Assembly (NCBI GenBank): GCA_965178125.1
Contig: CBCXTV010000001.1
Span: 62,001 to 126,000 of the forward strand
From: Bilabrum cf. latius
Taxonomy: Eukaryota
Length of the DNA: 64,000 nucleotides
Direction of reading: 5' to 3'
The position numbers and the translations under genes were made by a program. A model generated the notes under the pieces. The model did no database searches. It saw only the letters and a list, made by a program, of their open reading frames with translations, and was not told where the DNA came from. Of this stretch, positions 23,926 through 45,404 are shown in pieces. How positions within the stretch are numbered: the stretch's first letter is position 1; each line of letters starts with the position of its first letter.

Positions 23926-26900
23926 AGGCCCTAGAGTGGCCCTTCTCCGCTTCAATTCCTGTCCCAAATCCGATTCCCATTTCGAGACCGAAAAAGGTGA
24001 CCCGGAAAACGACGGTACTCTCCGTCACTCCATCTGGCGGCGAAAATTGCCTCAGTTTCCGGTCCCCGATTCCGGGCCCAGGGACCCCCGAAATTCCCGA
24101 TTCCGCGCAGTGCCGAAAGCTCGACATAAACCACAAACACGACACACAACACAACACGATAGCGCCTCCCCACGCGCGGGATTGGGTCCTTCCGCTCGCT
24201 GCATGTGAGCTGCAGTGTGTTCTTGCCGGGAATGTCACTGGAAGTCGCGCTGCAGTCTGCTCAGGGCGCCTTATGACCATGAAGGCGTCTCAGCACCCGC
24301 GACGGCAAGAGGGGGCACGCACGACGTTGCGAAGCACCCGCCCTGGGTGAAGAAACTGCGTATCCACAGGAGTCACGTTCAGGTGCGCGAGAATTGGAAA
24401 GGCGGGGTAACTGGTGCAGAGGAGCTTGTTCGCAGCGCGGCTTCCACCAGCGCCGCTGACGGTAAGATGCATCGGTCTCGGTACATGAGTCGGCACGGTG
24501 TTGCGTGATTGACTTCACGATGCGGGAGTGTGCAGCCTTCCGCAGCGGGAGAATTGTATCTCCCCACGACCGCCGAAAAAAAAAAGAAGGCTATGCTGGA
24601 CTCGTTCCAGGGAAGGCTATGCGATGAGTATCTCTAGGCGCTTTCCGGAAGACCCACCCACTACACGCTGGTCAGCCCTCCCAAGCGGGAGTGAACCGCG
24701 GATCCGCGGGCCCGTGAGCGCTGCTGCTACGATCATTTCTGCCCGTTTGACTCTCGCCCACTCTTGCCGTGACCAAAGACGCGCAGATCCTTATGACGCA
24801 TGACACCTCGTCGAGGTGTCGAGACTGCCTCACATTCCCGTTACAAAGACCCACAGCACTGCGACAACGAAATCGGTCACGAAGAGAGCAAGAGGCCGCG
24901 CACCTGAGCATCACAAAAACCCCGAGAGACATAAACAACACCGTCCCGTGAAGTCCCTGCGACGAGGGGATGCTAAGCGGCTCCCACGGCGGCTCCTCTG
25001 CGGGAAAAGCTGCCGCAGACCTCGAGATGGGATGCACATGACTGCGAAGATTGCGGAACTCGTCCGAAGCCGGTCGCACGAGGGTCACAGCGAATGGAGG
25101 CATATCTATGAAATAGAGTCTGCGTGCAAAGCAGCATTCCAACGATCGTCCGCATTCTTCCGAGCAAATCCTTGGGAGCACACATCCTGCGGACGACATC
25201 TCTTTTCTATCCACCCCAGCGTACTCCCCGCACACACTTCTCGCGAATGATTGAGAATTCTGTGCGGCACATGTAATATCAGGCTACCATGATACGCGGA
25301 ATGGCGTGCTATTGCTCGCACGTTCGTGCGCCCCCTTCCGAATGCGCTTACCACATCACTATGTTCGTCGGCAACCGTATACACCGTAGGGGTCTTCCCT
25401 CCGACACCAAGCGTACACGACTGGCCGTAATAGCGCAGCGTAGATGTTTCGGACGTCGCCCAGGACAAGTGTCGACGCCCGGTTCGTCACGATCACTACG
25501 TGTGCACTTCACTCACCGCCCTCCAGCCGCTAGACTTCTTTTGGAGCGCGACATCCTACGACGCGCTATGACACGTAGCCGTAAACCGCAGACGGCCTCG
25601 CGTTCACTGCTTGCAGCGCAAGAGCGTGAACAAGAACCGCCCGCGTGGCACACCTTCGCAGGCGCGGAAGACAAAAAGTTCCTTCTAAGCTTGTATTCGG
25701 GTCCGAAAGCCAAATTCCACTTCGGGGTCGAGAAGGGCGACCCGGGAAATCACCGTACGCTCTGTGAATCCATTTCCCGGGGAAAGTCCCCGAGTTCCCG
25801 CTACCCGGTCCCAGGCCCAGCGACCCAGGAAAGTTCCCGTCCCCCCGCATGCGGAAACCTCCCACGAAGCACGCCCACCTCACGCTTCACACGCAAAAGT
25901 CCAGGAGTCAAATCCATTCCGGACCCAGCAGTTCACCCCCCGTGACGATTGGGAAAGGCTCTTGCACACACCTTCTCGTCCGAGCAGTCTATGGAGCACA
26001 CACCTGTCTTCGTTGCCTTTTCCGGCCAAAAATGCAGGGAGTTCGAAGGGGAAGTAGCAAGCGCGGAAGACCGCTTTCGAAACGCAGGTGCTCAGGGAAA
26101 AACAACCAGAGCGTCCCTGATCCTCGGCAGAGCCGTCCAGGAGGGACGGGCACGGACGGGCATCGCAGATCTTGCAGCGCCACCATTCGCCGGGATGGGC
26201 GACCGGACGAGGGCGACCACAAGTACGTAGCGTGCGACGTCCGTCAGTCGCCATGTTGCGCTGATTCGCTTTCGCGGCACGACTTCCAGGGCCGGCCTTA
26301 CTCACTCCTCGGAGTCCGCGTGTGGATTCTCCCCTGCGCATGATCTGCCGCTCTAGATGCTACACAAAGATCCCGCTCGGATGACCCCCTCTGTGCATTC
26401 TGCAAGATTTTACGCGCCTCCATTCAATGCGCGAAGCATGCACCGCAGCAGTCTGAGTCCGGTGACCACCTTCAATAGCGTGGGACAAATTCCGTCCGCG
26501 ATGTGCATTCGGGCATGCTCCCCTTTCCGAGTCTCTGTGACCCGTAGTGCGTCCGCGGCCAACGACTCAGGACTCCACGATGGTACGCACGAGTTGCATT
26601 CCTTGCACGAAGCGTGCGGAGAGAAAGCGATGCTCAGACATCGAGGCGCTTGGAGGGTCTGCACGCGACATGCTTCGAGAGGCCATGCAAACATGCGAAA
26701 CCAGAACTGAGGTTCCTCATCGTTCCTGCTGTCGAGCGCTCAATTGGGGCATCGGATCAGGACGAAGCTCGCGAAGAGAGGGCGCGGGTGTCCCCATCCA
26801 AAAATCCGCCGCCTTCAAGGCTCATGTTCCCGGATCCTGCATTCGCGAGTTTCGGGAGCAGAAGTGCAAGATCGCCGCTGGACACACAGCGCATGCCATT

Positions 26901-26965
26901 TCCCGTCTCTGGAGATGTCGGGCTTCCAGGCGCAATTCGGACACCATCGCCAGGACCTCGGGAAG

Positions 26966-29476
26966 ATGACATGTCTGCTGATCTGCAGGGAAGAGTCCCG
27001 CTTCGAGGAGTGGCGACAAAAAAAAGGGGCGCGAGAACTCCACGAGCACATGGGAGCGGTCCTTCGGCTCCCCAATCCAGTGTTTCCGCAGACCGACAGG
27101 GACCCAGATGGACGCGACATCGTCAAAGACCAGGCCCTCTTGGATATCTTCTCCGGCAAGATAACGGACTGGAGCAAATACAATCCGGCCACTGTTGGGG
27201 CGATCCAATCCCATCGAAACGCATGGCTGTGGGCTGAGAACCACACGCCGACGGAATGGCTCATGGTTGTCGAAGATGATATCGAACCTCGCGAAGCATG
27301 CGTGGATCGGCTACTCGTAGTTCTTCACGCCATCGCGAAAAACCCCAAGGTGACGCAGATGGCCATGTTAGCGGGGTCAGAAGCACCGAGAATGGTCACC
27401 CTCCAGCGCGAAAACTCCACCTCCATCCACAATTGCGAGCGCCTCTTGGACGTGCGGACCTATCCGGCGCACTGGGTAGACAACACATTTGTGGTCCCCT
27501 ACCACGTCGGCATGGGCCTAAAGTGGTATCTCATCAGCCCGGAGGGGAGGAAGGCGCTCCTGAAGATGCGGATCCCGAACCGAAGCTTCGAACGCTGCGT
27601 CTGGCGCCGCCTCTTCGACACGTTCCAAGGGCCGGTATGGAAGTGGGGAGATTGCCTCCGCATGACATCTGTGCTGGCAGCCAGCCCGGTCCTCGCATCG
27701 ACTCCCGAGAGCATGGACACGGAGTGGGGGGGCTCGGGACGACGAAGTGCGGATGCAGGGCACAGTATGAAACCGTACATAATGGTCGACCCGAGTGACG
27801 ACTGGACTCTTGGCGAGCGATTAAACACATTGTCCGTCGTGATGTCCGTGTGCGCGGCCCTGAGTTGGGGGGTTGTCCTCGTCTGGGAAAAAACAGAGCG
27901 CGTGCCCATCTCCTACGAAGACTTGTGCGGTGTTCACGAGCACGCCGGCGAAACCAACACGTTCGTCCACCTCCTCCAGGACAAACGCGGCGGGTCGTAT
28001 TCGTACTTCCTGAGGTACGGAGACATCCGCATCCACGTGGTGCAGCCGATGATGTGCATCCCCACCCTCGACAGAATGCTCGACATGGTAGCCCTGAAGA
28101 GGCCCAAGATGAACACCCTGCCTCCCTTGAAATGGCAGACCGCTCGATGGATCCAAGTCAAGCAGAAGTGGATCGATAAACTCCACACGGAGATGCCGGG
28201 GGCCGAGCTGCCCTCATGGCTGGAGTGGCCACCCTCAACCCACGCGCTTGTCCTCTGCGACGACAGGGACTTGGCGGCGCACTGCCTCGAGGGGAGATGC
28301 CAAAAGGAGCAGCAGGAGTGGATGAACGACGGGAAGGACAACAGCATCCAGCACTACATCCTTGAGGCAAAGCAAGCGCTGCAGAACGAGTTGGAAGACA
28401 TCCTAAAGGGGGACAGCAGCTCACGCCTCGTCGTGATCCGCATGACAACCAAACTGCTGGGACAGGTCTGGGTGGACATGATGAAGCACCTCACGAAGCA
28501 GTTCGGGAAGCGCATCATAACGCCAACGTTCCTCCTCCCGAAAATGATCCCCAAAAGGAGGCACGACGAAAAGAACCCGAGTGATGATTGGATTACTTGG
28601 GGAGCATCCTTGGCGAAAACCGTGGGCCTCCTCACGCTCATACCTCCGATGCAAGTGCACTATCCCATCATGAGCTGGACCGTGGCCTGGAACCACTTCA
28701 TGTTTAAGGGCAGGACTGCCACGGACACCGTGATCCCAGACGTCATCCGAACTCTGTACGCTCCGCACAAGAGCAACAGGAAGCAGCTCCTCAAGAACGG
28801 CCCGCTGTGCCAGACGAGGCGCGCCGTGCTGGACTCGCCCGCACTGCGGGACATTGCGAACAACTACTCAAGGGCCAAGGACAAGACCTATAACCTCTTG
28901 AGTTATTCCAAATGGTTTGCCGAAGAAGCCATGTGGCACATGATCAAGTACGCGGAAAGCACGCAGTGCATCGTCGACCCGTTCGTGAGCCGCCAGTGCC
29001 AAAAGGTCTTCGAGCACATCCCCTCGGACGACATCGGCCATGCGGACGCCCGGCTCCGGTACAACCTTCAGGATGCCGACGACCGAGGTTACCGCTTCAA
29101 CGCGGGGCATCTCTACACCGCGGTGCAGGGCATCAAAACGGTGAACATCGCATACAACAAGTGGCTCACCGAGCAGGCACAGAGTCATTCCGAATGGAGC
29201 TGGGGCAAAACGTTCATCAAGCTTGTGATCAACCAGTGGCGGCAGCAGCAGGGCAGTGAGCCGTATGACGTGGACGAGGAGGACTACGTGAGCCTTCCGC
29301 GGACCTTCCACGGGAATTCGTTGAAGCTCGCGAGGAGCGTAAGCCTCCAGGACACGAGATCCTGCTCCAGATCGTCCTCATCCTATTCCAGGTCGCCCTC
29401 CACCAACAGGACTGAGGCACAGCCTTCGAAGAGAGCGCGCCTGACCCCGGCACCCGGCGTAAAGCACGAGCCCTGA
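26966..29476 (+). CDS. Glycosyltransferase: N-terminal GT25-like domain plus possible fucosyltransferase-like second domain (~836 aa; start uncertain, frame open from 26744)
   Basis: GAIQSHRNAWLWA..WLMVVEDDI fits the GT25 pattern GCxxSHxxxW..ILEDD. WYLISPEGRKALL fits AYxISxxGAxKLL. TLGERLNTLSVVMSVCAALSWGVVLVW resembles the GLGNRL..W start of fucosyltransferases. Confidence 0.8.
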   Translation: MTCLLICREESRFEEWRQKKGARELHEHMGAVLRLPNPVFPQTDRDPDGRDIVKDQALLDIFSGKITDWSKYNPATVGAIQSHRNAWLWAENHTPTEWLMVVEDDIEPREACVDRLLVVLHAIAKNPKVTQMAMLAGSEAPRMVTLQRENSTSIHNCERLLDVRTYPAHWVDNTFVVPYHVGMGLKWYLISPEGRKALLKMRIPNRSFERCVWRRLFDTFQGPVWKWGDCLRMTSVLAASPVLASTPESMDTEWGGSGRRSADAGHSMKPYIMVDPSDDWTLGERLNTLSVVMSVCAALSWGVVLVWEKTERVPISYEDLCGVHEHAGETNTFVHLLQDKRGGSYSYFLRYGDIRIHVVQPMMCIPTLDRMLDMVALKRPKMNTLPPLKWQTARWIQVKQKWIDKLHTEMPGAELPSWLEWPPSTHALVLCDDRDLAAHCLEGRCQKEQQEWMNDGKDNSIQHYILEAKQALQNELEDILKGDSSSRLVVIRMTTKLLGQVWVDMMKHLTKQFGKRIITPTFLLPKMIPKRRHDEKNPSDDWITWGASLAKTVGLLTLIPPMQVHYPIMSWTVAWNHFMFKGRTATDTVIPDVIRTLYAPHKSNRKQLLKNGPLCQTRRAVLDSPALRDIANNYSRAKDKTYNLLSYSKWFAEEAMWHMIKYAESTQCIVDPFVSRQCQKVFEHIPSDDIGHADARLRYNLQDADDRGYRFNAGHLYTAVQGIKTVNIAYNKWLTEQAQSHSEWSWGKTFIKLVINQWRQQQGSEPYDVDEEDYVSLPRTFHGNSLKLARSVSLQDTRSCSRSSSSYSRSPSTNRTEAQPSKRARLTPAPGVKHEP

Positions 29477-30350
29477 CGACGAAATGCCGCAGAACAGCGC
29501 GTTGCGGGGAGACAAAGCTCCGCGGGCAACAGCAGAAGGCCGCCGAGCGCCGGAGTTGGAGGGTCACATAGTTCCATCGGTCCCATTCTCTCCGGAAGTC
29601 GCATAGCACGTAGAGATCCGCATGCTCTCGGTGCATGAACGCTGGCAGCACGCAGTGCCAAAGTCGCAAAGCGCTTCAGAGTCACAAGTCCAGAAGTTCT
29701 TCTGCCAATGTGTGTCCTCTTCCCGCTCATGTGTGCATCCTCGGAGGAAGTCTGGAGATGACAGGACCCAGCACGCAGCACATCAGAAGTCCTTTTTTAA
29801 AGCGGCATCGTCAGACAAAAATCTGGAACGCCCTTCCGCAAAAAAGAGTGCTGCCCACAGAAAAAAGGGAAACACCTGAGGCCCCAGAAGCCAAAGGGAG
29901 GACCGCGAAGGACGCAGTTTCGAGGTCACACTTTCCGGGACCAGTTTTGAGCCCAAAAAGGGGTACACAAGAGGAAAACACGATGCGGGAGGCTTGAAAT
30001 TGTCACCGAAAACGGGCCCAAAATTGGGACCCCTTTTTCGCAAATTTCGCAGCATCCAGACGACCCAGAAAGGCTTTCCCAGGCGCCGCCTCGAAGCTCA
30101 CCTTCTCGCATGCAACCATGACGCAGCCCCACCTCCTCATGCAGACGCGTCTGAGAGACCCCGCAGTGGAACTTCTCCCATTCTGCGCAGGAAGCACTTC
30201 AGTCTACAAGGACCCGCGCACTTCTTACCGCACCACCTCCATGTGAAAGCACTTCTCGCGGAGTTTTTTTCGGGCCCAGGAATACAGCAACTGCCAGAAG
30301 CTTCGCACAGAAAAGCAGCCCACTCAGGAAGCAAACTCACTGCACACCCC

Positions 30351-30821
30351 ATGGCGAGCGACGCAGAACCGGAGGACGCAATGCGGCTCGACTCCCCTAG
30401 AGATGCGGATGCAGCGGCGCCACCCGAAGCGACGGAGGCAGAATCACAGAAACCAGATCATGCGCAGCAGTTCTTCGAGGAGCCCTGCCCGAAAGACGGA
30501 CACATGGAAGCGCCAGAGAAGACCGCCAAGACGGACGAACCTGGCGACACACCCATGTTCGTCGACAAGTGGACGGCAGCGATCACACGCCTTACCGAGG
30601 AGCGCAAGGCTCTCAAGCTCGAGCAGCGGGCTAAAACGAAGGCCATCCGCAAAACCATCCGGCAGAAAAGGCGCACCATGAAGAACGCCAAAAAACTCAC
30701 AGACGACGAGCTCGCCCAAATCGTGCTAGACAGGAAGATCTTGCAGTTGGTGCAAAAAGAAGAGATCGCAGCACGCAGCTCCGCCAACTCCTCAACGAGC
30801 CAGGCGAAGTCGACCTTGTGA
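30351..30821 (+). CDS. Basic coiled-coil hypothetical protein, copy 2
   Basis: Repeat of 3152..3622. Confidence 0.7.
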   Translation: MASDAEPEDAMRLDSPRDADAAAPPEATEAESQKPDHAQQFFEEPCPKDGHMEAPEKTAKTDEPGDTPMFVDKWTAAITRLTEERKALKLEQRAKTKAIRKTIRQKRRTMKNAKKLTDDELAQIVLDRKILQLVQKEEIAARSSANSSTSQAKSTL

Positions 30822-31239
30822 GAAGCGCTTCCCGTGTTCAGAGAACCGAGGATTACAGATAGACCCCGCGTCACAGAAGCCATCGCAAGAGGGCAGAGCG
30901 TCAAGTACAGCGCAGTCTTGACGGACACAGATAGCCCGAGCAGCACAAAGCAGCGGATGCGGCTGCCCAGCGGAGTCGCGCACTCGGACAGCATACACGG
31001 GACGTGCTGGCAGAAATCACTCAGTCCGCGAGCACCGTCGTCAAGAGCACGGGAGGGGCAGACTCGACATGCACAACTTTGAAAAACGGGAGGGCACGAA
31101 AGGAAGACAAATTTGGCATTAATCCTTGATTACCCCCGCCCCCCCGTAGAATCAGAGCGAGGAGATATGCTCGGAAGGTCCGGGGGGCAGTCGCAGAAAA
31201 GTGCACGCGAAAATAAGAGGAAAGGAGACCCCCCAAACC

Positions 31240-31487
31240 CACGTAGTGCGACCCTCGGGGGTACCCTCTAAGGTACTAAGAATCCTTCCCCCGAAAATCG
31301 CACTACATCGGTCCCTGGCGTCGGGGAAAGCGGAAAAAAGGGGAGCACTACCGTGAAAAAATCCTGCATTTTACAGGAAAATCGGAGCACTACGTGTCAA
31401 AAACTGGGGGTTTTTGAGGTTTTTTTTCCAGAAAAACGGCATTTTTTTATGTAAAAACCGCGCGAAACGAGCACTACCGAGCACTAC
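31240..31487. promoter_or_regulatory. Putative origin, copy 2
   Basis: Repeat of 4041..4288. Confidence 0.55.
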
Positions 31488-31995
31488 ATCGCCTCCTCCA
31501 GTCGTGTTTCGCATTTTTTTCGCTGGCCGAAAATGTCTCCGAAGGCGCTGCCTCGAGGGGGGGTTCCGATGGCTGATTTTGGGCGTTCTGTTGTCGATTT
31601 CGCGTGCATTTCAGGTTGTCGGCGAGGCCTTTTTGGCGTATGTCGCAGTTCGGATGCCCTCGAACGTCGTGTCTCATGTGGTATTCGCCGGTTTCTATGT
31701 TGGAGAAGGCGGTCGGTCGATCATCCTCTCTGGCAGGCTCCGAAGTGCGTTTGTGATCGTGCTAATTGCAACGCCATGCTTTCCTTCGTTGGCTTCGAGA
31801 ATCCTTCCCTCGGAAGCGGTAGTACCTCGCCCAGGGCGGCACGAGCTGCAGACTCAGCTGCCTCGGTGCTCATGTGTGTCCCGTGTCAGCAGTTTCGGTG
31901 TTACGAACAGCAAGGATTCTGGGCATTGCGTGTCGGAGGCAAGTGTTCTATCTTGAGGCATTCCGCGATTCGTCGAAGGATTATTTGCGCAAATA

Positions 31996-34281
31996 ATGTC
32001 GGCTCCGTTCAAGGGCGAAACGATGAGTTTGTCTGTTGCCGAGTCGCTGAAGTCCCGAGTCGCATCCTGCTCCTGGGATCCCGCGTGGGTTTCCGCGAGC
32101 TGCGTGCCGTGCGATGGCCTCCCCACAAGCCAGGAGTCAGAAGCGTCCACGACGGCGACCTCTGCTTTGTTAGGGGTGTCCGAGGCGTCCCCAACGTGCT
32201 CGTGTGGCCTCGGTGTCTCCAATTCGGTGGCTGCAGCGCGCGCGGCCGCTGTCCCGAGTTTTGGCTTTGACGATGCGGAGAACGACTTCGACGCCAGTCT
32301 CGACATGATTGAGGCCTCATGCGAGGTCGCATGCGAGGCAGAATGCGAGGGCGATCCGGGAGCCTGCTTGTTGTCCCACGGCAAGTCGAGCGGTCAGTGG
32401 CAGATCGGCGTAGTGGGTGAACGAGTCCTTTATGAGGGCCTCAGCGTTGAGGGCGACATTCCTGGCCGCGTTGCTGCCTCCGAAGCGCTCGCCGCGGGTG
32501 TCATCAATTTGGAACCCCCGTCAGAGGAAGTACTTTTGCCGGTGCAGCTTCTGCGGAGTAGTCAAGGTTACCGTGGGGTTCTGCCCATCGAGGATTCTGC
32601 GCCCGATGCGAGGGGGCGACCGCAGATGCTCATGCTCCCCGATTTCGTGCCCCGCGTGAAGAGGCGGCGTCTTCGGCAGAAGTGCGACCCTGCTGAGGGC
32701 GATGCAGCACCGAGTCTTGCGGCTCATCTCGGACCTCCGCCCGCGGCTCGTGCCGCGGCCGGAGCGTCTGGGCCGCAGCGCTCGACTGGAAGGCCTTCGA
32801 CTCGTCCTATTGATAGTGTCATCTATCGTCTCCTGCGGGTTTTCCCTGACGATTTCAAGTTGGCGTTTCCGGCGTCGGTGTCACACCAGCGGAAGCGGTG
32901 CCTCATCAGGGAGGCGCTTCGCAATGTACCCGGTGACCGCATGTGCATCTTGAAAGACTGGGCTGCGGGGGCGGAGGACACTCCTTGCCAGCTTCGTTTC
33001 GAGGAGCTCTTCCCGGAGCTTGCGCGGCAGCGGGACGAAGTTGTGAGGAATCCGGGATCGCACTCAGTGCCCGTGGGCGAGATTGTGCCTGCGTCCGACA
33101 AGAACACGAGGCGGGGAAGGGCCGTGATGCTTACCTTTCACGGTCGCTGGGGTGTCGAAAAGGAGCCTGTGCGCGACATCATGTCGGCATCCGTGGCAAG
33201 GGGCGTCCTGAGGCGATTGGTTCTCGCGTCTCCGTTCTATGTGGAGCTTTGGGCCACCTTCAAGGCATGGGCGCAGGACATCGCGCGGCGGATGATGTGG
33301 CCTCAGCTGTCCATGAAAATGGAGCTCTCCCTGCACCGCAAGCACGCCGCAAACTTGGTGCACTTCCACGTATGCATGACGGATTCCGAGAAGTCGCATC
33401 GTTGTCGCGTGGCGGAGGATTTCATGTGGGCCGGCAGCAGGCCGAATGTCGTCTACGGCTCCGGGCGGTCAGCGAAGGCGCAGGAACGTGGCGCGTCGGA
33501 GTTACACTATTATTGTCAAGCTCCCAAAGTCGGTGCGCTGCTTTGCGCCACGAACTACCGAGCCGGACGCGATTTCGTCGTCAATGGTAAGTTCGTGCAC
33601 GCGTTGTTCGCACGCTTCAAAATGGATCCGGACGTCGCGAGAAGGGAACTCGTGGCGTATCGGTGTCGGGACGCCGAGAACTTAGTGCGCGCCATCGACT
33701 TCCACATACAGAATACCGCGGAGAGGAGAGAGGTGTGCGCGCAGGCCGCGGTGCACGTAGTGACGAAGCTCCGCCCCTTTAAGGTGGTGCCCGAAGTCGA
33801 GAAGTGGCGCGAGAGCTATCGTCAGGAGTGGTTCGCGCACATGCGCTTCAAGTTCCTTGTCTTGGTGGGGGACTCCCGGTTCGGGAAGACAGTGTACGCG
33901 CGGAATCTCTTCGGGAGCGAAAGGACTCTTGTTGTGAACTGTCAGGGCAGTGTGGAACCTCCGCTCCGTGGCTTCGATCGAAGTCGGCATGTGGCCATTG
34001 TGTTCGACGAGGCAAATGCCCTGTGGGTCGTCAACAACAAACAGGTCTTTCAGGCTGGCCTTGACCCCTCCCTGCTCGGCCAGAGCAAGACGAACAGCCT
34101 CGCATACTCTGTGTGGCTCCACGGTATCGCCCTGATCATCTGCACGAATTCGTGGGGCTCTGACGTGACGGAGTCGGCGGACCGCGATTGGCTTGACAAC
34201 AACTGCACGAAAGTGGAGGTGAAAGATCGGCTCTACTTCGACGAGGACTTGTTGTCTCTCACGGATGTGCAGAAGAGCTGA
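31996..34281 (+). CDS. rep: HUH-SF3 Rep, copy 2
   Basis: Same motifs; one S>P difference from copy 1. Confidence 0.93.
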   Translation: MSAPFKGETMSLSVAESLKSRVASCSWDPAWVSASCVPCDGLPTSQESEASTTATSALLGVSEASPTCSCGLGVSNSVAAARAAAVPSFGFDDAENDFDASLDMIEASCEVACEAECEGDPGACLLSHGKSSGQWQIGVVGERVLYEGLSVEGDIPGRVAASEALAAGVINLEPPSEEVLLPVQLLRSSQGYRGVLPIEDSAPDARGRPQMLMLPDFVPRVKRRRLRQKCDPAEGDAAPSLAAHLGPPPAARAAAGASGPQRSTGRPSTRPIDSVIYRLLRVFPDDFKLAFPASVSHQRKRCLIREALRNVPGDRMCILKDWAAGAEDTPCQLRFEELFPELARQRDEVVRNPGSHSVPVGEIVPASDKNTRRGRAVMLTFHGRWGVEKEPVRDIMSASVARGVLRRLVLASPFYVELWATFKAWAQDIARRMMWPQLSMKMELSLHRKHAANLVHFHVCMTDSEKSHRCRVAEDFMWAGSRPNVVYGSGRSAKAQERGASELHYYCQAPKVGALLCATNYRAGRDFVVNGKFVHALFARFKMDPDVARRELVAYRCRDAENLVRAIDFHIQNTAERREVCAQAAVHVVTKLRPFKVVPEVEKWRESYRQEWFAHMRFKFLVLVGDSRFGKTVYARNLFGSERTLVVNCQGSVEPPLRGFDRSRHVAIVFDEANALWVVNNKQVFQAGLDPSLLGQSKTNSLAYSVWLHGIALIICTNSWGSDVTESADRDWLDNNCTKVEVKDRLYFDEDLLSLTDVQKS

Positions 34282-34685
34282 CGCCGGCCGCTGAGGTTTT
34301 CAGTCCGGTTCACACGAGCGCCGGAGCCGCAGCGGCAGCCGCTTCGGTGCTCCTGAAGGTCTAATGTCCTCAATGCGTTTCGTGTGCAAAAAGGATGTGG
34401 TTTCTACATGGGGGCATTCCGCAAGTTTCATGTGGTCCGTCGCGTTCGTCCGGGGGAGTGCTTGCCTAGTATTGGGAGCTTGCCTGACACACACACACGT
34501 GGCACCCAGCCTGATGGGTTGCAAGTGTGTGTGTGTCTCCGCAGTGCCGCGGTTGGGACCCGGCGGGTCGTTTGCTTTTACGTCGCCGCGTCGCGCGCCG
34601 ACGAGACATTTCTTGGTCTCAGAAGCCTCTGCTTCCGGTAGGCGCGCCGTGTACACTCGCGGGCCGAAGGTGGGTGCGTTGCTTG

Positions 34686-36497: not shown

Positions 36498-37505
36498 ATG
36501 ATGTCTGAGGAGAAACCGTCCGAGAGCATTGCTGTTTCCTTGGGAGACGGCCGCAATCTTCGTGCGCGTCGAGGCGCCGGTGATATGGGAAACGAGGGCG
36601 GCATGTTGGCGCGCGAGGTCGACGCGCCGGCGGAGCACGCCGGCGCGGCGGCAAGCGTCGATGATTCGGGCGGCCCCCACATCGAGAGCGGCGGCGCGGA
36701 GGCGGCGTCCACGGGGATGCTCGGAGAGGAGAGCGGCAAGGCAGCGCCGAAGGAGGACGCCGAAGACGACGGCGGCAAGAAGACGGAGGAGGAGGATGCT
36801 CGCGGCGGTGGACGTGCTGTGGTGCCCGGAGGTAATGACGACGTATGGACCAACGCAGCAGCTTGGAAGGCGGGTGGCGGCGTGGCAGCCGGGGCGGTCT
36901 CTGGCGCTGATAGCTGGGATCTATGGGGGACCCCTGCGAAGTCGTCATGGGGGGAGACGTACGTGCTGCGGCAGGTCGCGTCGGAGCCGGCGGAGGAGGC
37001 GACATGGACTTGCAACGCGTGCCAGTGCTGCAAGCCCCGGTCGGCGTACTTTAAGAAGTGGAAGGACTGGATCCAACCAGTTTGCCGGGTGTGTTGCGAC
37101 AAGTTCGACAACGCGACGCCGTGGTGGGTGTGGTGCAAGAGCTGCAAAAACGAGTATCCGGCGTACCGATTTCCCCAGATCCGCCGGAAGAAGGAGAACT
37201 TGCGCTATTTCTTCCCTGAGGACTGGTGCGCGAAGTGCCTGGTTGCGCGTGGCTGGAGTCTCCATGATGTCCGTTCCTCTGCGGGTGAAGCGAAGCGTTG
37301 GGTGCCAAAAGCTGGCGCGAATACCGGTGACGGCGACAACGACGCTCGTGCTCCCGCACGCGACGAGCTTCCTGCAGGAGGCGCCGCCTCCTGCAGCAAC
37401 GCCGTGCGTCAGAGTTCTTCGCGTGACGAGGCCTTGGATGACATCAAGCGGGCCATGGAGCTTCTCCAGAATGCGGAAAGGTTCCTCCTCACGATGCCAG
37501 CGTGA
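36498..37505 (+). CDS. Zinc-finger protein B, copy 2
   Basis: Repeat of 9299..10306. Confidence 0.75.
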   Translation: MMSEEKPSESIAVSLGDGRNLRARRGAGDMGNEGGMLAREVDAPAEHAGAAASVDDSGGPHIESGGAEAASTGMLGEESGKAAPKEDAEDDGGKKTEEEDARGGGRAVVPGGNDDVWTNAAAWKAGGGVAAGAVSGADSWDLWGTPAKSSWGETYVLRQVASEPAEEATWTCNACQCCKPRSAYFKKWKDWIQPVCRVCCDKFDNATPWWVWCKSCKNEYPAYRFPQIRRKKENLRYFFPEDWCAKCLVARGWSLHDVRSSAGEAKRWVPKAGANTGDGDNDARAPARDELPAGGAASCSNAVRQSSSRDEALDDIKRAMELLQNAERFLLTMPA

Positions 37506-38606
37506 CGCGGGAGCTTCCCGAATGGGTCCGTCGTACTGTGAGGGCGCTCCGGAAGGAAGAGCGCGAGTGAGTCATCCTTGCGCCGAGGTGAGCGCGACGT
37601 CGGAGGAGCACGGTCGTTTGATTGGGAACGATATGGTCGGCAGAGTGTGAAAATCCGAGTTTCTCGTGCAGGATTGGGCAGCTCTCTAGATATCTTGCCT
37701 GGGAAGGGTGTGATGTGGTGGGAGCGCTTCCGCCTCACGTGGCAGACGTCCACACTTCCTGGTTCCCCGGCAGGCTGTTTGGCGAGACGGAGTGGCAAAG
37801 CATCCGCCTGCTGATTCCTACTTTGTTACCTCGATTGTGAGCTCGGAGCTTGGGGCGGAGGATTCTGCGGGCAGCTCATGTGTGCCTAGAGTGTCATCCC
37901 GCGACCCTCTGACTTCTGTTCGTGGCTTTACCTCTTCGCGCAGGAAGATTCCTCATGAGGCAAGCCCGGTCCGAACTCGCGTGGGATGCCGTGCGCTGGT
38001 GCGGCTTCCACTCATCCCCGGGGTGGGGAGCGCTGGGTAAAGGATCGTCTGTCCCTGCAAGTTTCGATTCGGCGAGGTGCGGCAGCATGACGCGGACCGA
38101 GGTGAAGTCCTTTGTCCGCGATAGGTCGCCGCGTCGCGCGGTGGCGACCCCACAGCGCCCCAATCCCATTCCGGAGAGGGGGTGTGATGCAGTGGGAGCC
38201 CTTCCGCCTCACGTGACAGACGTTCACACTTCCTGGTTCCCATAAGGTCTTCAGCACAGCGCATGCGAGGCAGGCTGTTCGGCGAGACGTAGTGGCATCG
38301 CCCCCGCCTGCTCATTCCTACTTTGTTACCTCGATTGTCAGCTTGGGGCTCGGGGCGGCGGATTCAGCGGGCAGCTCATGTATGCTGGAGTGTCATCCCG
38401 CGACCTCTGACTTCTGTCCGTGGCTTTACCTCTTCGCGCAGGAAGATTCCTCATGAGGCAAGCCCGGTGCGAACTCCTGTGGGATGCCGTGCGCTGGTTC
38501 GGATTCCACTCATGCCCGATGTGGGGAGCGCTAGGGTAAAGGATCGTCTGTCCCTGCAAGTTTCGATTCGGCTCGAGTCAATGTGAGGAAGGAGAGGTGC
38601 GGCAGC

Positions 38607-39128
38607 ATGACGCGGAACGAGGTGACGTCCTTTGTCCGCGATAGGTCGCCGCGTCGCGCGGTGGCGACCCCGCAGCGCCCAAACCCCGCCCCGCCTAGTC
38701 CTCACTCGACAGCGGTGTCGAACCTGCAGCAGCGCTTCGAGAACATGCAGCAGCGTGCGGAAAGCTTGAGCGCTCAGCTGGAGTACGCCCAAAGTGTGAT
38801 CAGGCTGCTCTCAGGCCTGTTGCGCGATGAGGCTCCTCGGTTCTATGCAGACTTTGATCCCGTGATTCGGCGTGCGATGTCTGGCGCAAGCGGCTCCGTT
38901 GCGGGTAGGTCTTTCCGTCTTGTGGACGGAGGCGTCATCCACGGACCTGACACAGCAGTCGCTGCTCCTCCGCGTCGTCTCATCGTTGAGGTGCGTACGG
39001 ACTGGGAGATGACCGAGACTGCCTCAACTGTGCTGGATTCCTCAGGATCAGACGACATGGGTTCCGAGGACTCGCCGCCGCCGACCGTCGTCCTCCCCAG
39101 CGGCGCGGCGGGCGCCGGCGGTGCCTAG
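38607..39128 (+). CDS. Hypothetical coiled-coil protein, copy 2
   Basis: Repeat of 11408..11929. Confidence 0.6.
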   Translation: MTRNEVTSFVRDRSPRRAVATPQRPNPAPPSPHSTAVSNLQQRFENMQQRAESLSAQLEYAQSVIRLLSGLLRDEAPRFYADFDPVIRRAMSGASGSVAGRSFRLVDGGVIHGPDTAVAAPPRRLIVEVRTDWEMTETASTVLDSSGSDDMGSEDSPPPTVVLPSGAAGAGGA

Positions 39129-39702
39129 TCCTCGGCAGCTCCTGCATCGGAGCCTCCTGTCGAGATTCGATCGCGCAACGTCGTTCCTTACATTGCTTGC
39201 CGTCGCATGTGCCGGGCGGTGGTGGGTGTGCGTGTTCGCCGAAAGTTCCCGGCCTCGTCTTCCTCAGGAGAGCTCCTCGACCCGAAATTGGCAGCTCAGC
39301 GCTGCCGTGGCCGATACAGTACCCGTGCATGGCCAGTTGGCAGCTACGCGCTGCCGTTGCCAATGTCGTCCGCACGAGAGCAGAGTGGCAGCTCAGCGCA
39401 GGCGAGAAACCGCGCTCGCAATGCTGCGAGGTGTATTCAATGCTGTGCACGTGTCTATCCCTCTCCCTGGTTTTGTCTCGCTTGCGCCAGTGTGACCGCA
39501 GCAGAGCGGGTGCTTCCCGTGCGTCTTCAGCTTTGAGCACTCCTCCAGCGACAGGAAGGCATTCGCTTGCTCTCGCTCCCCGCCTGCGTCCTATCCCTCC
39601 CGGGTATCTTCAGAGGCCACAGGCAGTGCGAAGCTTGGCAGCGGGTCCGTCCGCGTCGTTTCGGCTGTGAGCGATCTTCTGCCCGGTTCCTCACGCGTCA
39701 TA

Positions 39703-41304
39703 ATGTCCTCTGCTTCGGTGCCGGATCAGCTCGCACGGATCAGTAAGGAGCTGAAGTGTCTCAGAGACGCGAGACAACGGGCGCGCAATGGGCTGCGCCA
39801 TCCGTGGTTGCGCGCCATGGAGGCACAGGTCGCTGAGGTTATTCGTCATCACCCCGGCGGTGGCGAGGCAGCTCTTCGAACCTATGTCTCTCGTCAGTTG
39901 CAGAGTCGACAGGTTTCCACGCGGACGGCTTCGCAGGAGGAGTTTCAAAGGCAGGTCGATGAGGAGGTCGCGCTCACCATGAGGCGCCCAGCTGAGGCGT
40001 GGCAGCGAAATCCTCTTCGCTCATGTCATCGAGAGTCCGTGGCACGCGCAGAGACCTTTCTCGCCGAGGCTTCTGTCGTTGCTTGGATCGACCATGTGAA
40101 CGAGCAGCGTGGGTGTGCTCCAACTGGGAACATGGTTTTCGCCATGCTTGCGAGGATGGGCGTTCGCGCGGGGAAGGACTCGGCTCGACGGCAGTGGCTC
40201 CTGCGCTTCCGTCGTCGTTGGCGGCTTCGGCATGGCCGATTGAAGAAGCAGCCCCCGGTAACACTCGATTACGTCAGACTCGCGTGTCGTGTCTTCTATC
40301 AGTGGATTGAATTCGCAGAAGCGCGAGTGCCCCCCAACCGCCGCCTCGTCTTTGTGAATTTCGATGAGTCCAGCGTGCCCTTTGCCTTTCCGGGAATGCG
40401 CGGGTACATCGCACCGAGGTCAGGAACGGAGCCCGCTTCGCTTGGTTCGCGCACGGAGCGCCTCGCCTCGAATAGCAATCGAGGATCGTACACCTTTCTG
40501 GGTTTTATTAGCGACTGCCCGGAAATCCAGCGACGACTCCCGCGTATACTCATCGGGAAGCACACGCGGCTGAGCAAGCGCTTGATGCGTGGGGCGCCGA
40601 ACCAAATGGTGGACGGAATGGAAGTCTGGGCCCGAGAGAGCTCGTGGGTGACGCAGTCCCTCATGTTCGACATTCTGCGTCGGCTTTTCGCTTCTTGGAT
40701 GGACATTCAGCATGAGATCTATCCAATAGTGATACTTGACTGCGCGCCCCAACACATTTCCACTGAGATTGTGAACTTCGCACACGGCCTTGGCATGGAT
40801 CTCGTGTTTATTCCTGGTCGACTCACCTTCCTGCTTCAGCCGTTGGACGTTCTCGTCTTTCAGCTTCTTAAGCGCGACCTTCGGGAGACGTGGATGCAGG
40901 AGCGCTCGCGTCATGAAGCGGGTCATGTCGATGTCTCTTGCCATCTCAGGGTTGTCGCTGAGTGCACGAAGAGAGTGCTCTCGTCTGGCTCGTGGCAAGG
41001 CGCTTTCGATATGACAGGCATTACCAGCGGCAGGCGCCGCTTGCATTCGACCCTACGGCGCTTGTTTGAGTGTGACATGGAGGACATCTCCAGCGATGCT
41101 CCGTCTGTCGACCAGCTCCGCTTCATCAGCAGTCCGCAGCAGCCTCTCCCGCACGATGCGCTCATCAACAGGGCCCCAGTCGCGTCCGGACACGCGGTCG
41201 ACGGAGGCGTCCACGGTGGTAACGCTCGCCGCGTGCCTCGTGGCCGCAGACTAAACGGATGGACCCCCCGCGATCGCGCTCACCCCTCGGCGGCCATGCC
41301 GTGA
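39703..41304 (+). CDS. pogo/Tc5 DD35D transposase, copy 2
   Basis: Same protein as 12504..14105. Confidence 0.92.
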   Translation: MSSASVPDQLARISKELKCLRDARQRARNGLRHPWLRAMEAQVAEVIRHHPGGGEAALRTYVSRQLQSRQVSTRTASQEEFQRQVDEEVALTMRRPAEAWQRNPLRSCHRESVARAETFLAEASVVAWIDHVNEQRGCAPTGNMVFAMLARMGVRAGKDSARRQWLLRFRRRWRLRHGRLKKQPPVTLDYVRLACRVFYQWIEFAEARVPPNRRLVFVNFDESSVPFAFPGMRGYIAPRSGTEPASLGSRTERLASNSNRGSYTFLGFISDCPEIQRRLPRILIGKHTRLSKRLMRGAPNQMVDGMEVWARESSWVTQSLMFDILRRLFASWMDIQHEIYPIVILDCAPQHISTEIVNFAHGLGMDLVFIPGRLTFLLQPLDVLVFQLLKRDLRETWMQERSRHEAGHVDVSCHLRVVAECTKRVLSSGSWQGAFDMTGITSGRRRLHSTLRRLFECDMEDISSDAPSVDQLRFISSPQQPLPHDALINRAPVASGHAVDGGVHGGNARRVPRGRRLNGWTPRDRAHPSAAMP

Positions 41305-42323
41305 CCTCGACCACGACCATGTCAGGGGCGAACGCGACTTCGTCAACCTCGAGCACGACCATCCCAGCGGCGAACGCGGCTTCCTCGATGGGATCCCTGA
41401 CCCCGACGAAGCTTCCCCGACCTCGGCCACGTGAACCTGCAGGCGCATTCTTGCCCGATGTGCCCGCGCAGGTGGCGGCCTGCACGGCGTGGGCGCCACC
41501 GTTTCGTCGACCAGACAGCTCAGCCACTCCGGCGACGCGCGAGGCGGCAACGTCCACGTGCATCAATCCGTGGACCGCTCTCTCCTGGTATCCGACACCA
41601 CCGCAGCCGACGGACCCCCCTTCCGACAGGCCTCGCGAGGTACCGAACCGGAGCTCCCGGCAGCAGCGCAGGCGTCATGCTTGGGGCGGCACGTGGGTGT
41701 TCGACGACGCCATTACGCTCAGCGATTGCGGGTCGAGGGTGCAGATCGACGCGCCGCAGTCGAAGCTCTTGGCGATGGTCCTGCCCCGGAAGTCGGGCCA
41801 GTGGATTCCTCGTAGGCTGCGCTCGCGTACGATCTGGTATTTGGCTGGGGAGCAGTCGGCCGTGATCACCAACCTCAAGTGCCAGGCCTGCAGTCGGGTC
41901 AAGCACGCGGACAGCTTCAACCCGAAGAGCTTGCGTCGGGCTCAGTACTCGTTGCTGCATTCCCTGTGGCCCGGCTACATACGACGTACCGAGCGGTCTA
42001 TTTGGTGCACGCAGTGTGCGGTGGAGGACCAGTTGATGCAGGGCAACTTTCCGGACGGCTACTGTTTCCGGATCCGCGCCACACTCGAAATTTGCCATCA
42101 AGATCGCGTCGCGGCCAAGCTGTTTGCAGTGCACGACAGTAACGCTCTCTTCGAGCAGATCCCGCTGAGCTCCCGTGCGGCCATGGACGTGGCGGAGCAG
42201 TTGCGCCGATACTGGCAGGATGCCGTGTCCTCAGACGGCCAGAGCAACATCTTCCACAGCGACCACGTTTCGACAGACGACGACTCTGAGTTCGCACCGG
42301 GCGGACCGGAGAGCGTGCCGTGA
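41259..42323 (+). CDS. Zinc-finger protein C, copy 2
   Basis: Repeat of 14060..15124. Confidence 0.7.
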   Translation: MDPPRSRSPLGGHAVTSTTTMSGANATSSTSSTTIPAANAASSMGSLTPTKLPRPRPREPAGAFLPDVPAQVAACTAWAPPFRRPDSSATPATREAATSTCINPWTALSWYPTPPQPTDPPSDRPREVPNRSSRQQRRRHAWGGTWVFDDAITLSDCGSRVQIDAPQSKLLAMVLPRKSGQWIPRRLRSRTIWYLAGEQSAVITNLKCQACSRVKHADSFNPKSLRRAQYSLLHSLWPGYIRRTERSIWCTQCAVEDQLMQGNFPDGYCFRIRATLEICHQDRVAAKLFAVHDSNALFEQIPLSSRAAMDVAEQLRRYWQDAVSSDGQSNIFHSDHVSTDDDSEFAPGGPESVP

Positions 42324-45300
42324 GGGACCGCAGCGACAGTAGCGTCGCTTAGGTGAGGAGCGGGTGCCAATGCTCTTTTGAAAATGGTGTGTCGTACGTA
42401 CGGCAGGAGCCGTCGGTGGGAGCGGGGCGGATCCTGCGGGAAGTCGTGGAGACTGAGGGCAGAGACTCTCGGGTCGGTCAGGGTCTCATGTAACGTGCTG
42501 TTCACCGCAGAGGTATGTGCGGATCTTGGTGGATCTCTCGAGGACATGGGTGGCATACCGTTGTGCATCCGTTCCCCGGGGGGGGCGGTCGCAGAAGAGT
42601 GCACACGAAAACAAGAGGAAAGGAGACCAACCCCCCAAACCCACGTAGTGCGATCCTGGGGGGTACCCTATAAGGTACTAAGAATCCTTCTCCCGAAAAT
42701 CGCACTACCTCGGGCCACAACGTCTTGGTGGATTCCTCGAGGACATGGGTGGCATACCGTTGTGCATCCGTTCCCCGTCGCTCCCTAACGTCTTCAGTGG
42801 CAGGTTCGGAAAAGACACCTCCGTAGGCACGCGACAAGTCCCGGTGAAGCGGGCTCGCACCGCGCTGGGCGGGAGATCGTGAGCGCTTAGAGGACCGGAG
42901 CTTTCGGGCGGGTGCGTGTCTCGACAAACTCCCTCTTGACCACGGGCGGGGAACGTGTAGGGCGGAAGCTAAAGACACCGTAAGTAGCGGAGGGCTAACA
43001 TTCCGTCCTTCGGTGAGAGCCAAAAGTTCGAGTCTGCGAGAGACTATTATACGAAGTTCTCCCCTCCTCATACGTGCGCATAGCCTCCTCACGCGGTAGC
43101 GCGAGCGCGGGACCCGGACCTGTCCCTGATGGGCGTGAATCTGAACCCGGCGTACTCTCCTAGTCTGTCACTTCCACGACCTTGTTGTCGCGGAACCACT
43201 TGCACGGAGAGGAACCTGTCGTTCAAGCGGGTGCAGCCGGACGCGCAGGTGTAGTGCATCGCCTTGCATATGTGCACGGCCAAGTAGATGCCGGAACCGT
43301 AGAGGTATCACACTTCCCGCGGAGCTTGGGTGGGTCTTTCGCTGCTGTCGTCTGCTCCAGAAGGTTTGCGCCAAAAACCGGAAAACTTCTAAGACAGAGG
43401 TGGGATGCCAGGAGCTCACGGTCCTGCCGGATTGGGGAGGTCCATGCCCACGCGAGCCGGGTACGCGTCCAAATCAACGCACAGAGCGGGAGCTGAGGGC
43501 GCCAAGGACGCTCACTGTCAGGCACACACAACGCGCACAGAATTCGTCATTTCGCGTTCAAAGCCTGCCAACGACGTGGCGCTTGGCGAAATGTGGTGGG
43601 TGGCGAAGATGTGGTACTTCGCCGTGCCTTTCTCTATGACGGCCAAGCGTGCACTCGCCATCGCGCTCGGACGCCACAGGAAGAGATCCCAGCTCGCAGC
43701 TCCGCCGCCTCATCCAGGAGTAAGGCGAAGTCGAATCGTGAATAGCGCTTCGCACCTTCACAGAGCCGAGGATCACAGATAGGCCCCGCCTCACAGAACC
43801 CAGCGCCATAGGGCAGAGCGTGAAGTACCTGGCCGCTTGGCTTGGCCGGACCCCCGCCCGCCCTCCGCCGGCAGCTCCTCCCGTCCGTCCCTATGGAGGC
43901 AGATCCGCGTACCCATGCTGCGGCGGGATCCTGACACAATCCGCTCCTCTTAGTGTGTGGCCGTGGGGCATGAGTGGAGCAGCATCGGGCCCTCACCAGC
44001 CGTGGAACGGAAGCAGCTCTCCGTGCGGCAGCTGTGCGATGCACAGACCTCGTCCCAAAGATACGGATCCATTTTGCCGTCTTCCCGCGCATACTGCATC
44101 GCTCTGCAAAACTGCATTGCGCAGTGGATCCCCGAGCGTCGACTGCCAATAGCAGGCGGCCTCGCAAGGCCTTCATGGACGCAGGATTTGGGCTTCTTCA
44201 TCGTAAATTTGGGGTCTGCTCAGCGCGCGAAAATTCCAACGCTTCAAAATGATCCGGACGTCGCGAGAAGGGAACTCGTTGCTTGCTCACCTGTGCGGAG
44301 GGGTTGGATGCCCGATGTGCTAAAGAGAGGATACTGTCCGTCGGCGTTCTCTCTTCACCTTGTGCGGAAGGGTTGGGTGCCTGATTTCAGACAGAGAAGG
44401 TCTCGTCCGTTGGGAGCGCTTAGGAATACTTCCGGATGGGGCGTCCAGACGCGGTCCAGGACCTCCAGCTCGTCGGGGTCAATGTCGCCCGCGCCGTCCG
44501 TGCCTTTGACGCCTCTGGATCGATGATGCCCACGATCTTTGTCATCTCGGACGACACACGTCCCAGCTGCTCTTTGGTAGTGCATTACCTCATTGACCCC
44601 GAAGCGTTGAATATTTAATGAAGACCCTTCGGAAGCTGGCGAAGTTTGTCAGCTTGTCGGAGCGCAGCCTGGGTCCTTGTCAACAAACATGGAGGGTTTC
44701 GGGGCGGATTTCCAGCGTTCCGCCTTGATATCGAGTGCACCTCGAGGTCGGGATCGAAGCGGGGCGGGCGGTTCGTCATCCTCTGTGATACGCTTAGGAG
44801 GCGCCGACTTGATGCCCACCTTGTCCCCCAATCACTCCAGACGTAACTGGGGAACTCTTCCCGTCGTGGGCCGGGTACGCCTCCGAATCCCACGCGAGCC
44901 GTTCCCCACGGCGCACCGATAAGCGCCGCTGCAAGCGTACCAAGAGGGGCGTACCAAGAGGTGCTTCCTTCGCTCGGCAGTGTGGCACTTCAAGCAGTAG
45001 AATGTGCCACTCCCAGCACGTAGGTGGAGTTTGCGAGCTGCCGGCCGACATGCTCGTGTGGTGACCTCCGGCGCACCGATAAGTGCCGCTGCAAGCGCAC
45101 CAATACTACTTCGCTTGGGAGCGAGGCACTTTAAGCAATGCAGTGCGCCGGTTTTCGTGCACGCCCAGTCGCGCGGACGCCGCAGGTGGCTTGGCCGTAG
45201 GATAGAATTAGTGGCGGGTCGGTTTTGCATGTCTTCCCTCTCCTCTTGATATGGTACACAAAGGCAAGAGCCTGACGATGCAGACGGAACTCCTGGATTT

Positions 45301-45404
45301 CACCGCCACATTCCTAGTCAAGACAGCCCTCGACTAAACAGACGCCGAGTTATCTTGAGCAGCATCCCACGACGCAGTGATGTGGACGGCAAGGGTGATG
45401 CCAT

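Follow-up and report, generated by a model that had tools for sequence, protein, structure and literature searches.

Rep and a pogo-like transposase encoded together in a 27.2-kb tandemly repeated unit of Bilabrum cf. latius, a possible capsid-less mobile element

The repeated unit and its principal genes

A 64,000-bp stretch of DNA from the eukaryote Bilabrum cf. latius (GenBank assembly GCA_965178125.1, contig CBCXTV010000001.1, positions 62,001 to 126,000), here termed the window, encodes a Rep protein of the type found in single-stranded DNA viruses whose circular genomes encode Rep (CRESS-DNA viruses), a pogo-like DDE transposase, and a glycosyltransferase (GT). Self-BLAST reveals that 2.35 units, arranged head to tail with periods of 27,199 and 27,186 bp, make up the 64-kb window. 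Positions 1-36814 correspond to 27200-64000 at 99.83% identity, and positions 1-9615 correspond to 54386-64000 at 99.80% identity. The array occupies the window throughout, with no host flank within the 64 kb, and the GC content is 56-64% throughout. A first-pass annotation had proposed a large composite element at 23930-42780. Given that head-to-tail units of 27.2 kb fill the whole window, this interval is not a bounded element. It is the gene-rich part of the middle unit, and its limits do not mark the ends of an element. Outside the gene cluster, the unit consists of fragments of its own genes and of repeats.

All convincing open reading frames (ORFs) lie on the plus strand and are uninterrupted, and all long ORFs are intact in every copy of the array. 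In codon composition the convincing ORFs are alike, with GC low at position 2 and high at position 3, a pattern absent from the antisense ORFs and from most others. The Rep, DDE, and GT genes were found where the first-pass annotation had placed them, co-oriented on the plus strand and each in a single uninterrupted ORF. The array and these three genes are as follows.

1-64000, plus strand: tandem array of 2.35 units (self-BLAST)
31996-34281, plus strand: Rep761, HUH Y1 endonuclease plus superfamily 3 (SF3) helicase (alignment, AlphaFold, Foldseek)
4797-7082 and 59182-61467, plus strand: further copies of Rep761
39703-41304, plus strand: DDE533, pogo-like DD35D transposase (Pfam DDE_1), with an alternative GTG start at 39667
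12504-14105, plus strand: further copy of DDE533
26915-29476, plus strand: GT853, two-domain glycosyltransferase (family profile, structure model)
1-2277 (cut by the window start) and 54101-56662, plus strand: further copies of GT853

The Rep protein

Rep761 is encoded by a single uninterrupted ORF and begins with a variable region of 330 residues that carries a conserved KRRRL-like basic patch. Neither Rep761 nor any of the 11 members of its family has a Pfam match, and comparison of Rep761 with the Protein Data Bank (PDB) gives no relevant match by sequence or by profile. A search of residues 330-761 against 5.8 billion proteins yields 10 relatives, with E values from 1e-137 to 1e-40, all of which are metagenomic and without Pfam domains. 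In the alignment of these 11 sequences, the residues expected of an HUH endonuclease are invariant in all members, namely T380 of motif I, H456 and H458 of the HUH motif, and Y506 in the sequence HYYCQAPK, which is the sole invariant tyrosine of the family. The same is true of G625, S627, and G630-K631-T632 of Walker A, D671-E672 of Walker B, and N718 of motif C. These catalytic and ATPase residues stay invariant across relatives down to about 27% identity.

The AlphaFold model of residues 330-761 has a mean predicted local distance difference test (pLDDT) score of 83.7. Its top Foldseek match in the PDB is full-length Rep68 of adeno-associated virus 2 (AAV2), with an E value of 6e-8 over 486 alignment columns, followed by Vientovirus Rep, papillomavirus E1, and parvovirus B19 NS1. 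Against predicted viral structures, the first 50 matches all have E values of 1e-8 or lower (top 5e-14), and the 25 with names are all Reps, NS1s, or nonstructural proteins from CRESS-DNA viruses or parvoviruses. The P-loop ATPase domain (residues ~594-750) is fused to the nuclease, and the best structural matches of the helicase domain are the SF3 proteins Rep68, papillomavirus E1, parvovirus NS1, and porcine circovirus 2 (PCV2) Rep. A structural search across representatives returned mainly generic AAA+ matches, over residues 264-421. Judged by its alignment and predicted structure, Rep761 is an intact, very divergent CRESS-type Rep with HUH and SF3 domains, as the first-pass annotation had proposed.

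No relatives of Rep761 are found in the IMG/VR collection of viral contigs. A scan of prokaryote genomes recovers one relative with 31% identity, at 626-1678 of a 1,859-bp contig (L022) labelled as a proteobacterial metagenome-assembled genome. This contig is probably a mis-binned fragment of a eukaryote or of an element, and not evidence for a bacterial host.

The transposase

DDE533 matches Pfam DDE_1 above the cut-off (E 2.1e-11), and all nine members of its family match DDE_1. The triad D221, D346, and D382 is invariant in all nine members, and 35 residues separate D346 and D382, which bears out the earlier description of an intact DD35D enzyme. The signal for the helix-turn-helix (HTH) domain HTH_Tnp_Tc5 is weak, with an E value of 0.057 and 13.8 bits against a cut-off of 22.2, and it is seen in two of the nine members. 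The DDE family is rare, with five clusters among the scored candidates from 5.8 billion proteins, and a second search with the family profile adds no further proteins. IMG/VR contains no DDE relatives.

The end of DDE533 overlaps the start of the next gene (ORF354, at 41259) by 46 bases. No convincing terminal inverted repeats (TIRs) surround the DDE gene; the best candidates, a pair of 15 nt, lack TA flanks and have one arm inside ORF354, and an inverted pair of this length arises in 5% of simulated sequences. Both the overlap and the absence of visible TIRs had been correctly recognized in the first-pass annotation. Because TIRs are lacking and a homologous DDE gene adjoins a homologous Rep gene elsewhere, DDE533 appears to be a resident gene of the unit and not a nested insertion.

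Linkage of Rep and transposase at other loci

A metagenome scan with the Rep alignment gives 21 loci of 1.3-12 kb. Rep is flanked on one side by 2.4 kb or more at only six of these (L002, L014, L016, L019, L020, and L021). By tblastn and hidden Markov model (HMM) searches, a relative of DDE533 lies on the same strand as Rep at three of the 21 loci, and thus at three of the six with this longer flank. These three loci are arranged as follows.

L002, same strand: Rep 841-2586; DDE ~5238-7145, 3.5 kb downstream
L014, same strand: DDE 3229-5202, ~1 kb upstream; Rep 6164-7555
L016, same strand: DDE 3-1037, 380 bp upstream; Rep 1418-3358

Gene order varies, with DDE upstream of Rep in L014 and L016 and downstream in L002 and in the window, where Rep761 and DDE533 are 5.4 kb apart in every unit. 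No TIRs bracket the Rep-DDE pair in L002 or L014. In addition, the Rep relative P0002 and the DDE relative P0042 each come from a European Nucleotide Archive (ENA) contig of 14,535 bp and are likely to form a fourth linked pair. The identities of the two proteins rank alike (Rep/DDE): 44/50% between the window and the 14,535-bp contig, 49/40% between L014 and L016, and 23-38% for the other pairs. Such parallel divergence is suggestive. Since Rep and DDE both recur together and appear to diverge in parallel, the pair may form the core that an element family has conserved, as opposed to a product of chance nesting.

Relatives of GT853, ZnF430, and ORF354 are found at none of the 21 loci, and the contigs that carry GT853 relatives match in size none of those with Rep or DDE relatives. 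The expectation that Rep, DDE, and GT genes would be syntenic at independent loci thus holds for Rep and DDE at the three loci above, and fails for the GT and Zn-finger genes. Because the latter genes are found beside Rep at none of the 21 other loci, the conserved layout consists of Rep and DDE only.

Several further features occur at these loci. L015 (3089-3688) and L020 (182-709), two distant Rep loci, have a second ORF in common (48% identity over 60 amino acids), which is located downstream of Rep at one locus but upstream of it at the other. Units of ~5-6 kb that are circularly permuted or in tandem would be expected to show this arrangement. In L002, two repeat tracts stand beside the Rep-DDE pair and recall the repeat block of the window unit: a long 8/9-bp microsatellite-like run (3270-4340) and, at 9200-12033, arrays of ~280-bp and 48-145-bp repeats in which the core CGCGTGGCAGGC recurs. 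In L014, the motif CGAGGCGTTGCCC occurs five times (at 2362, 6023, 7584, 9006, and 11128), several times just upstream of ORFs, and may be a shared promoter or binding site.

The glycosyltransferase and the smaller genes

GT853 has no Pfam match of its own, and 23 relatives are found among 1.84 billion representatives. Three of 17 aligned members match Glyco_transf_25 weakly (best E 0.0046), and the family profile matches Mimivirus R655 (E 7e-4) over an SH...W...EDD motif. The structure model has a pLDDT of 76 and a Foldseek E value of 9e-6. Residues 13-275 adopt a GT-A fold like that of GT25 enzymes in the model, with matches to COLGALT1 (Z 16.4, root-mean-square deviation 3.4, 204 aligned) and R655 (Z 16.3). 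Residues ~278-615 resemble fucosyltransferases, including POFUT2 (Z 11.2), NodZ (Z 11.1), POFUT1, and FUT8 (Z 10-11), while the C-terminal third is helical and has no structural match. Because its first region matches GT25 enzymes and its second matches fucosyltransferases, GT853 is, by its modelled fold, a two-domain, putatively bifunctional glycosyltransferase with a helical tail.

The remaining genes of the unit are shorter.

30351-30821, plus strand: ORF156, with an acidic N-terminus and a basic helical C-terminus (gene-like codon GC of 0.60/0.45/0.72)
34686-35378, plus strand: ORF230, Cys-rich protein (tblastn relatives)
36213-37505, plus strand: ZnF430, with a Cys-rich C-terminal half (reading of the sequence; no Pfam match)
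47231-48399, plus strand: near-full second copy of ZnF430, 98.5% identical, present in each unit (self-BLAST)
38607-39128, plus strand: ORF173, short and helical, a doubtful gene (codon GC 0.68/0.57/0.71; no Pfam match)
41259-42323, plus strand: ORF354, with a Ser/Thr/Pro-rich N-terminus followed by a CxxC...CxxC region (reading of the sequence)

These genes appear to include the ORFs that the first-pass annotation described as three Zn-finger and two coiled-coil ORFs. The ORFs themselves are present on the plus strand, but their Cys-rich or helical character is recognized by reading, and the sole family signal among ORF230, ZnF430, and ORF354 is a sub-threshold match of ORF354 to Stc1 (E 0.051). 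ORF156, which has no Pfam family above the cut-off, is probably one of the ORFs described as coiled-coil; it and ORF173 have helical, charged stretches, as judged from their translations. ORF230 has no family by Pfam or by the protein atlas (best score 0.75). Its relatives lie directly downstream of Rep at two loci, with 60% identity over 228 amino acids in L003 and 26% over 145 in L001 (tblastn). Every ORF of at least 400 amino acids is accounted for, and Pfam scans of 16 ORFs detect no capsid, packaging, or polymerase families. Structure models cover GT853 and residues 330-761 of Rep761 only.

Patchwork and repeats

In each unit, ~5 kb is taken up by a patchwork of pieces from the unit's own GT853, Rep761, ZnF430, and ORF354 genes and spacers, in shuffled order, with all pieces except one in direct orientation. 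Its junctions recur in four public runs. This patchwork and the associated repeats are as follows, none of them assigned to a strand.

45405-50178: patchwork of ~30 pieces, each 29-1169 bp and 80-100% identical to its source (blastn of 42324-51115 against 23930-42323)
49923-50119: 197-bp palindrome with 97-nt arms and a 3-nt loop (z -27.9)
50200-51109: 2.3 copies of a 397-bp unit, each with 3.5 copies of a 53/54-bp repeat (Tandem Repeats Finder)
23021-23924: the same 397-bp repeat block (Tandem Repeats Finder)

The palindrome has CAGTG termini and was considered as a pair of abutted TIRs or as an origin. It was rejected in both roles, its arms being a piece of GT853 coding sequence and the reverse complement of that piece. 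It is here that the single inverted piece of the patchwork lies. The 397-bp repeat block could, speculatively, be an array of binding sites. The window contains no Rfam families or tRNAs, and the dinoflagellate spliced-leader relic motif has no matches in it.

Within the patchwork, ORF515 (47036-48583) is an open chimeric frame with gene-like codon GC (0.60/0.55/0.73), which joins partial and near-full ZnF430 copies to short ORF354-like and GT853 N-terminal pieces. At 45543-46584 (also 18343-19400), a 500-bp unit occurs twice and contains 72-bp repeats that derive from GT853 codons at ~28953-29028 and are linked to fragments of Rep and ORF354. Two copies of a ~400-420-bp sequence, with 87% identity, occupy the ZnF430-DDE533 spacer (37769-38687).

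Copies of the unit and public runs

Adjacent copies of the array differ by 31 substitutions, some of them clustered, and by 13 indel events over 36.8 kb. Part of 31500-41400 is present in 16 public runs from 12 studies, under at least nine organism labels, and 10 of the 16 contain half or more of the sequence words of this interval. The contigs of four of these runs cover all 30 bins of 23900-43800. In these four runs, which were compared with the window, long pieces are ~99.4% identical and further pieces are 90-99% identical. The presence of 90-99% variants in all four is as expected of a multicopy family. In run X1 the summed word depth is 1.8-6.4 x 10^5 over 37,428 pieces, a figure that is not convertible to copy number.

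In runs X5, X7, and X9, the 139 bp at 43423-43561 are replaced by sequence absent from the window, which is a structural variant between strains. No host junctions are found in the public runs, where the patchwork or this small replaced segment accounts for the loose ends. No RNA runs are listed among the public runs that contain window sequence, which is evidence in neither direction.

Interpretation of the array

The repeated unit is probably a Rep-bearing, composite, transposon-like mobile element. In the reading that we tentatively favor, the window consists of copies, joined end to end, of a capsid-less selfish element that belongs to a GC-rich genome, probably that of a protist, and the core of this element is the Rep-DDE pair. 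GT853, the Cys-rich ORFs, and the short helical ORFs look like lineage-specific passengers. The DDE enzyme would cut and paste the element into chromosomes, while Rep would nick a putative origin and drive rolling-circle copying into head-to-tail multimers. The array of 27.2-kb units, and the patchwork with its pieces in the same orientation, could then be footprints of rolling-circle replication and template switching. Both rolling-circle copying and DDE-mediated integration are suggested by what these enzyme families do elsewhere.

Several observations weigh against this reading. Element ends, TIRs, target duplications, and empty sites are found neither in the window nor in the public runs; inside an array, the ends of the whole unit would not be visible. 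The origin of CRESS DNA is a stem-loop that carries a nonanucleotide, and the window has no match to a degenerate version of this motif with a flanking stem, although a divergent origin could be missed; nor is there any intergenic hairpin with a stem of at least 10 besides the GT853-derived palindrome. At the related loci, DDE is absent from 18 of 21, including three of the six with at least 2.4 kb of flank (L019, L020, and L021), and the DDE of L002 is split over three frames. The fourth linkage is deduced solely from both contigs measuring 14,535 bp, and the parallel divergence involves only five pairs. Among 40 of the 205 differences between the window and the public runs, those listed, 22 are at coding sites, and six of these 22 fall at third codon positions. 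Because the differences are not biased to third positions, the recent copies bear no sign of purifying selection. Finally, part of the copy heterogeneity may be assembly error, because the between-copy differences at 30442 and 30555 each occur in a single copy and in none of the four runs compared.

An unlikely alternative is that a large pogo-like DDE transposon picked up Rep from a CRESS-type virus or plasmid. The transposase alone would then move the element, Rep would be a passenger that is perhaps kept for another role, and the array would have formed by unequal crossing-over or replication slippage. The DDE_1 domain with its intact triad is consistent with this, as are the variable order of Rep and DDE between lineages, the lack of an origin-like hairpin or nonanucleotide in the window, and a precedent in truffle, where the passages compared describe a repeat with TIRs (PMC3198968). 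However, no TIRs are seen here, and the invariance of the Rep catalytic and ATPase residues down to ~27% identity is unexpected for an idle passenger. Because there are 21 Rep loci and three linked DDEs, Rep also looks like the more constant partner. It is rather improbable that the unit is a free circular plasmid- or virus-like replicon of ~27.2 kb, which appears here as an assembler multimer or natural concatemer and not as a chromosomal array. The absence of flanking host sequence in 64 kb and the very high summed word depth in run X1 would agree with such a replicon, and the two private differences would fit consensus error. Yet the two periods are unequal, the 31 substitutions are partly clustered, and word depth does not translate into copy number. 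Moreover, neither the Rep nor the DDE family occurs in the viral contig collection, and the Pfam scans of 16 ORFs detect no capsid or packaging gene.

Inert host repeat DNA is a still poorer prospect. In this reading a degenerating endogenous Rep, a transposon unrelated to it, and genes of the host were neighbors by chance and were co-amplified as a segmental tandem duplication, and the pairing has no function. The scrambled gene debris in each unit and the third-position count among the recent variants are what such DNA might contain, but the long ORFs are intact in every copy and the catalytic residues of both enzymes are invariant. Furthermore, the same two families are same-strand neighbors at three independent distant loci, with parallel divergence. 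It is very improbable that the unit represents part of a larger DNA virus (a giant virus, or a polinton-like or mriyavirus-like virus) or the satellite of one. The genes of such viruses can include Rep-type nickases and glycosyltransferases. The N-terminal domain of GT853 does resemble Mimivirus R655, the vaccinia H3 fold, and a glycosyltransferase of PBCV-1. In the sections of the two reports considered, circovirus Rep-like nickases occur in some polinton-like viruses (bioRxiv 10.64898/2026.10.13.758929), and mriyaviruses of 35-45 kb encode HUH nucleases (bioRxiv 10.1101/2024.02.29.582850). However, no major capsid protein, packaging ATPase, or polymerase is found among the ORFs with a gene-like codon pattern, the ORFs of at least 400 amino acids are all accounted for, and IMG/VR contains no relatives. 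Of the double jelly-roll capsid, packaging ATPase, and polymerase or primase that mark polintons and polinton-like viruses, the Pfam scans detect none. In addition, the HUH nuclease and helicase of mriyaviruses, as described there, are separate proteins, whereas they are fused in Rep761.

Returning to the capsid-less element with a Rep-DDE core, a broader and rather doubtful proposal is that elements with an HUH-SF3 Rep and a DD35D transposase form a widespread, undescribed class of eukaryotic mobile replicons, the eukaryotic counterpart of integrated pCRESS. If the class is real, its transposase would insert and excise the element, and Rep would multiply it by rolling circle, giving concatemers able to insert again in the form of arrays, which would make the class a link among CRESS viruses, plasmids, and cut-and-paste transposons. 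Genomic CRESS Reps are usually read as dead viral fossils. Pairing of Rep with a cut-and-paste transposase would, if true, give capsid-less replicons a route to live in and spread through eukaryotic genomes. It would also constitute a testable two-enzyme "integrate and amplify" system and could account for how long tandem arrays arise suddenly. The Rep-DDE pair can be searched for directly in protist genomes.

Comparison with known systems

The genome of a CRESS-DNA virus is a small circle of a few kb. Bacterial pCRESS, in the passages of Kazlauskas et al. 2019 that were compared, are capsid-less Rep replicons that are mostly integrated (PMC6668415). Rep761 resembles the Reps of both in its fused HUH Y1 endonuclease and SF3 helicase. 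In contrast to these systems, the window unit measures 27 kb and not a few kb, its Rep is paired with a eukaryotic pogo-like DDE transposase, and Rep761 is too divergent for a Pfam match or a PDB match by sequence. CRESS viruses have a jelly-roll capsid gene; the Pfam scans of 16 ORFs of the unit detect no capsid family, and no recognizable origin stem-loop is found in the window. DDE533 resembles pogo and Tc1-mariner transposases in its DDE_1 domain and DD35D spacing, and has a sub-threshold Tc5/CENP-B-type HTH signal, but no convincing TIRs or TA duplications are found around it, and it belongs to a much larger multigene unit, beside a Rep.

To our knowledge, Helitrons and Replitrons are the only Rep-based transposon groups that have been described in eukaryotes. 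Both reside in eukaryotic genomes and depend on an HUH nuclease of the Rep type, an enzyme that the unit described here also encodes. According to the parts of Craig 2023 that were compared, the Replitron Rep is of the Y1 type, lacks a helicase, and is weakly linked to CRESS Reps, while the Rep of Helitrons is a Y2 protein to which a Pif1-type SF1B helicase is fused (PMC10288648). The defining features of neither group are present in Rep761, which combines Y1 with SF3 and has a DDE gene alongside; the term DDE has no occurrences in the Replitron paper (PMC10288648). Among the viruses, mriyaviruses have separate HUH and helicase proteins together with capsids (bioRxiv 10.1101/2024.02.29.582850), and polinton-like viruses with circovirus Rep-like nickases have capsid modules (bioRxiv 10.64898/2026.10.13.758929), as far as the excerpts of both reports go.

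Geminivirus-related DNA of Nicotiana lies in tandem. It resembles the window in being Rep-bearing viral DNA in multiple copies in a host genome, but its copies are small, degraded pieces of virus that carry neither a transposase nor cargo genes. Its integration is mentioned in the part of PMC7493932 that was compared. In the full-text literature, outside of which lie subscription journals, Repbase, and supplements, no eukaryotic pairing of an HUH-SF3 Rep with a DDE transposase is found apart from the truffle repeat described next.

The closest precedent found is the degraded Rep-plus-transposase repeat of the truffle Tuber melanosporum, a geminivirus-like transposon in which an ORF resembling Rep is accompanied by two transposase ORFs and by TIRs of 37 bp (Liu et al. 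2011, PMC3198968). Like the window, it is a repeated unit with CRESS-type Rep-like and transposase ORFs, although the transposase family is not named in the passages compared (PMC3198968). The statement of the first-pass annotation that no known system matches this layout therefore stands for CRESS viruses, Helitrons, and Replitrons, all of which differ, but is slightly overstated in view of the truffle repeat. According to the same passages, that repeat amplified recently, with copies more than 95% alike (PMC3198968), and has an interrupted or truncated Rep and two similarly disrupted transposase ORFs, TIRs, dispersed copies, and a fungal host. The window, by contrast, has intact enzymes, no visible TIRs, tandem copies, and a 27-kb unit with extra genes, and its pairing of Rep and transposase recurs at distant loci.

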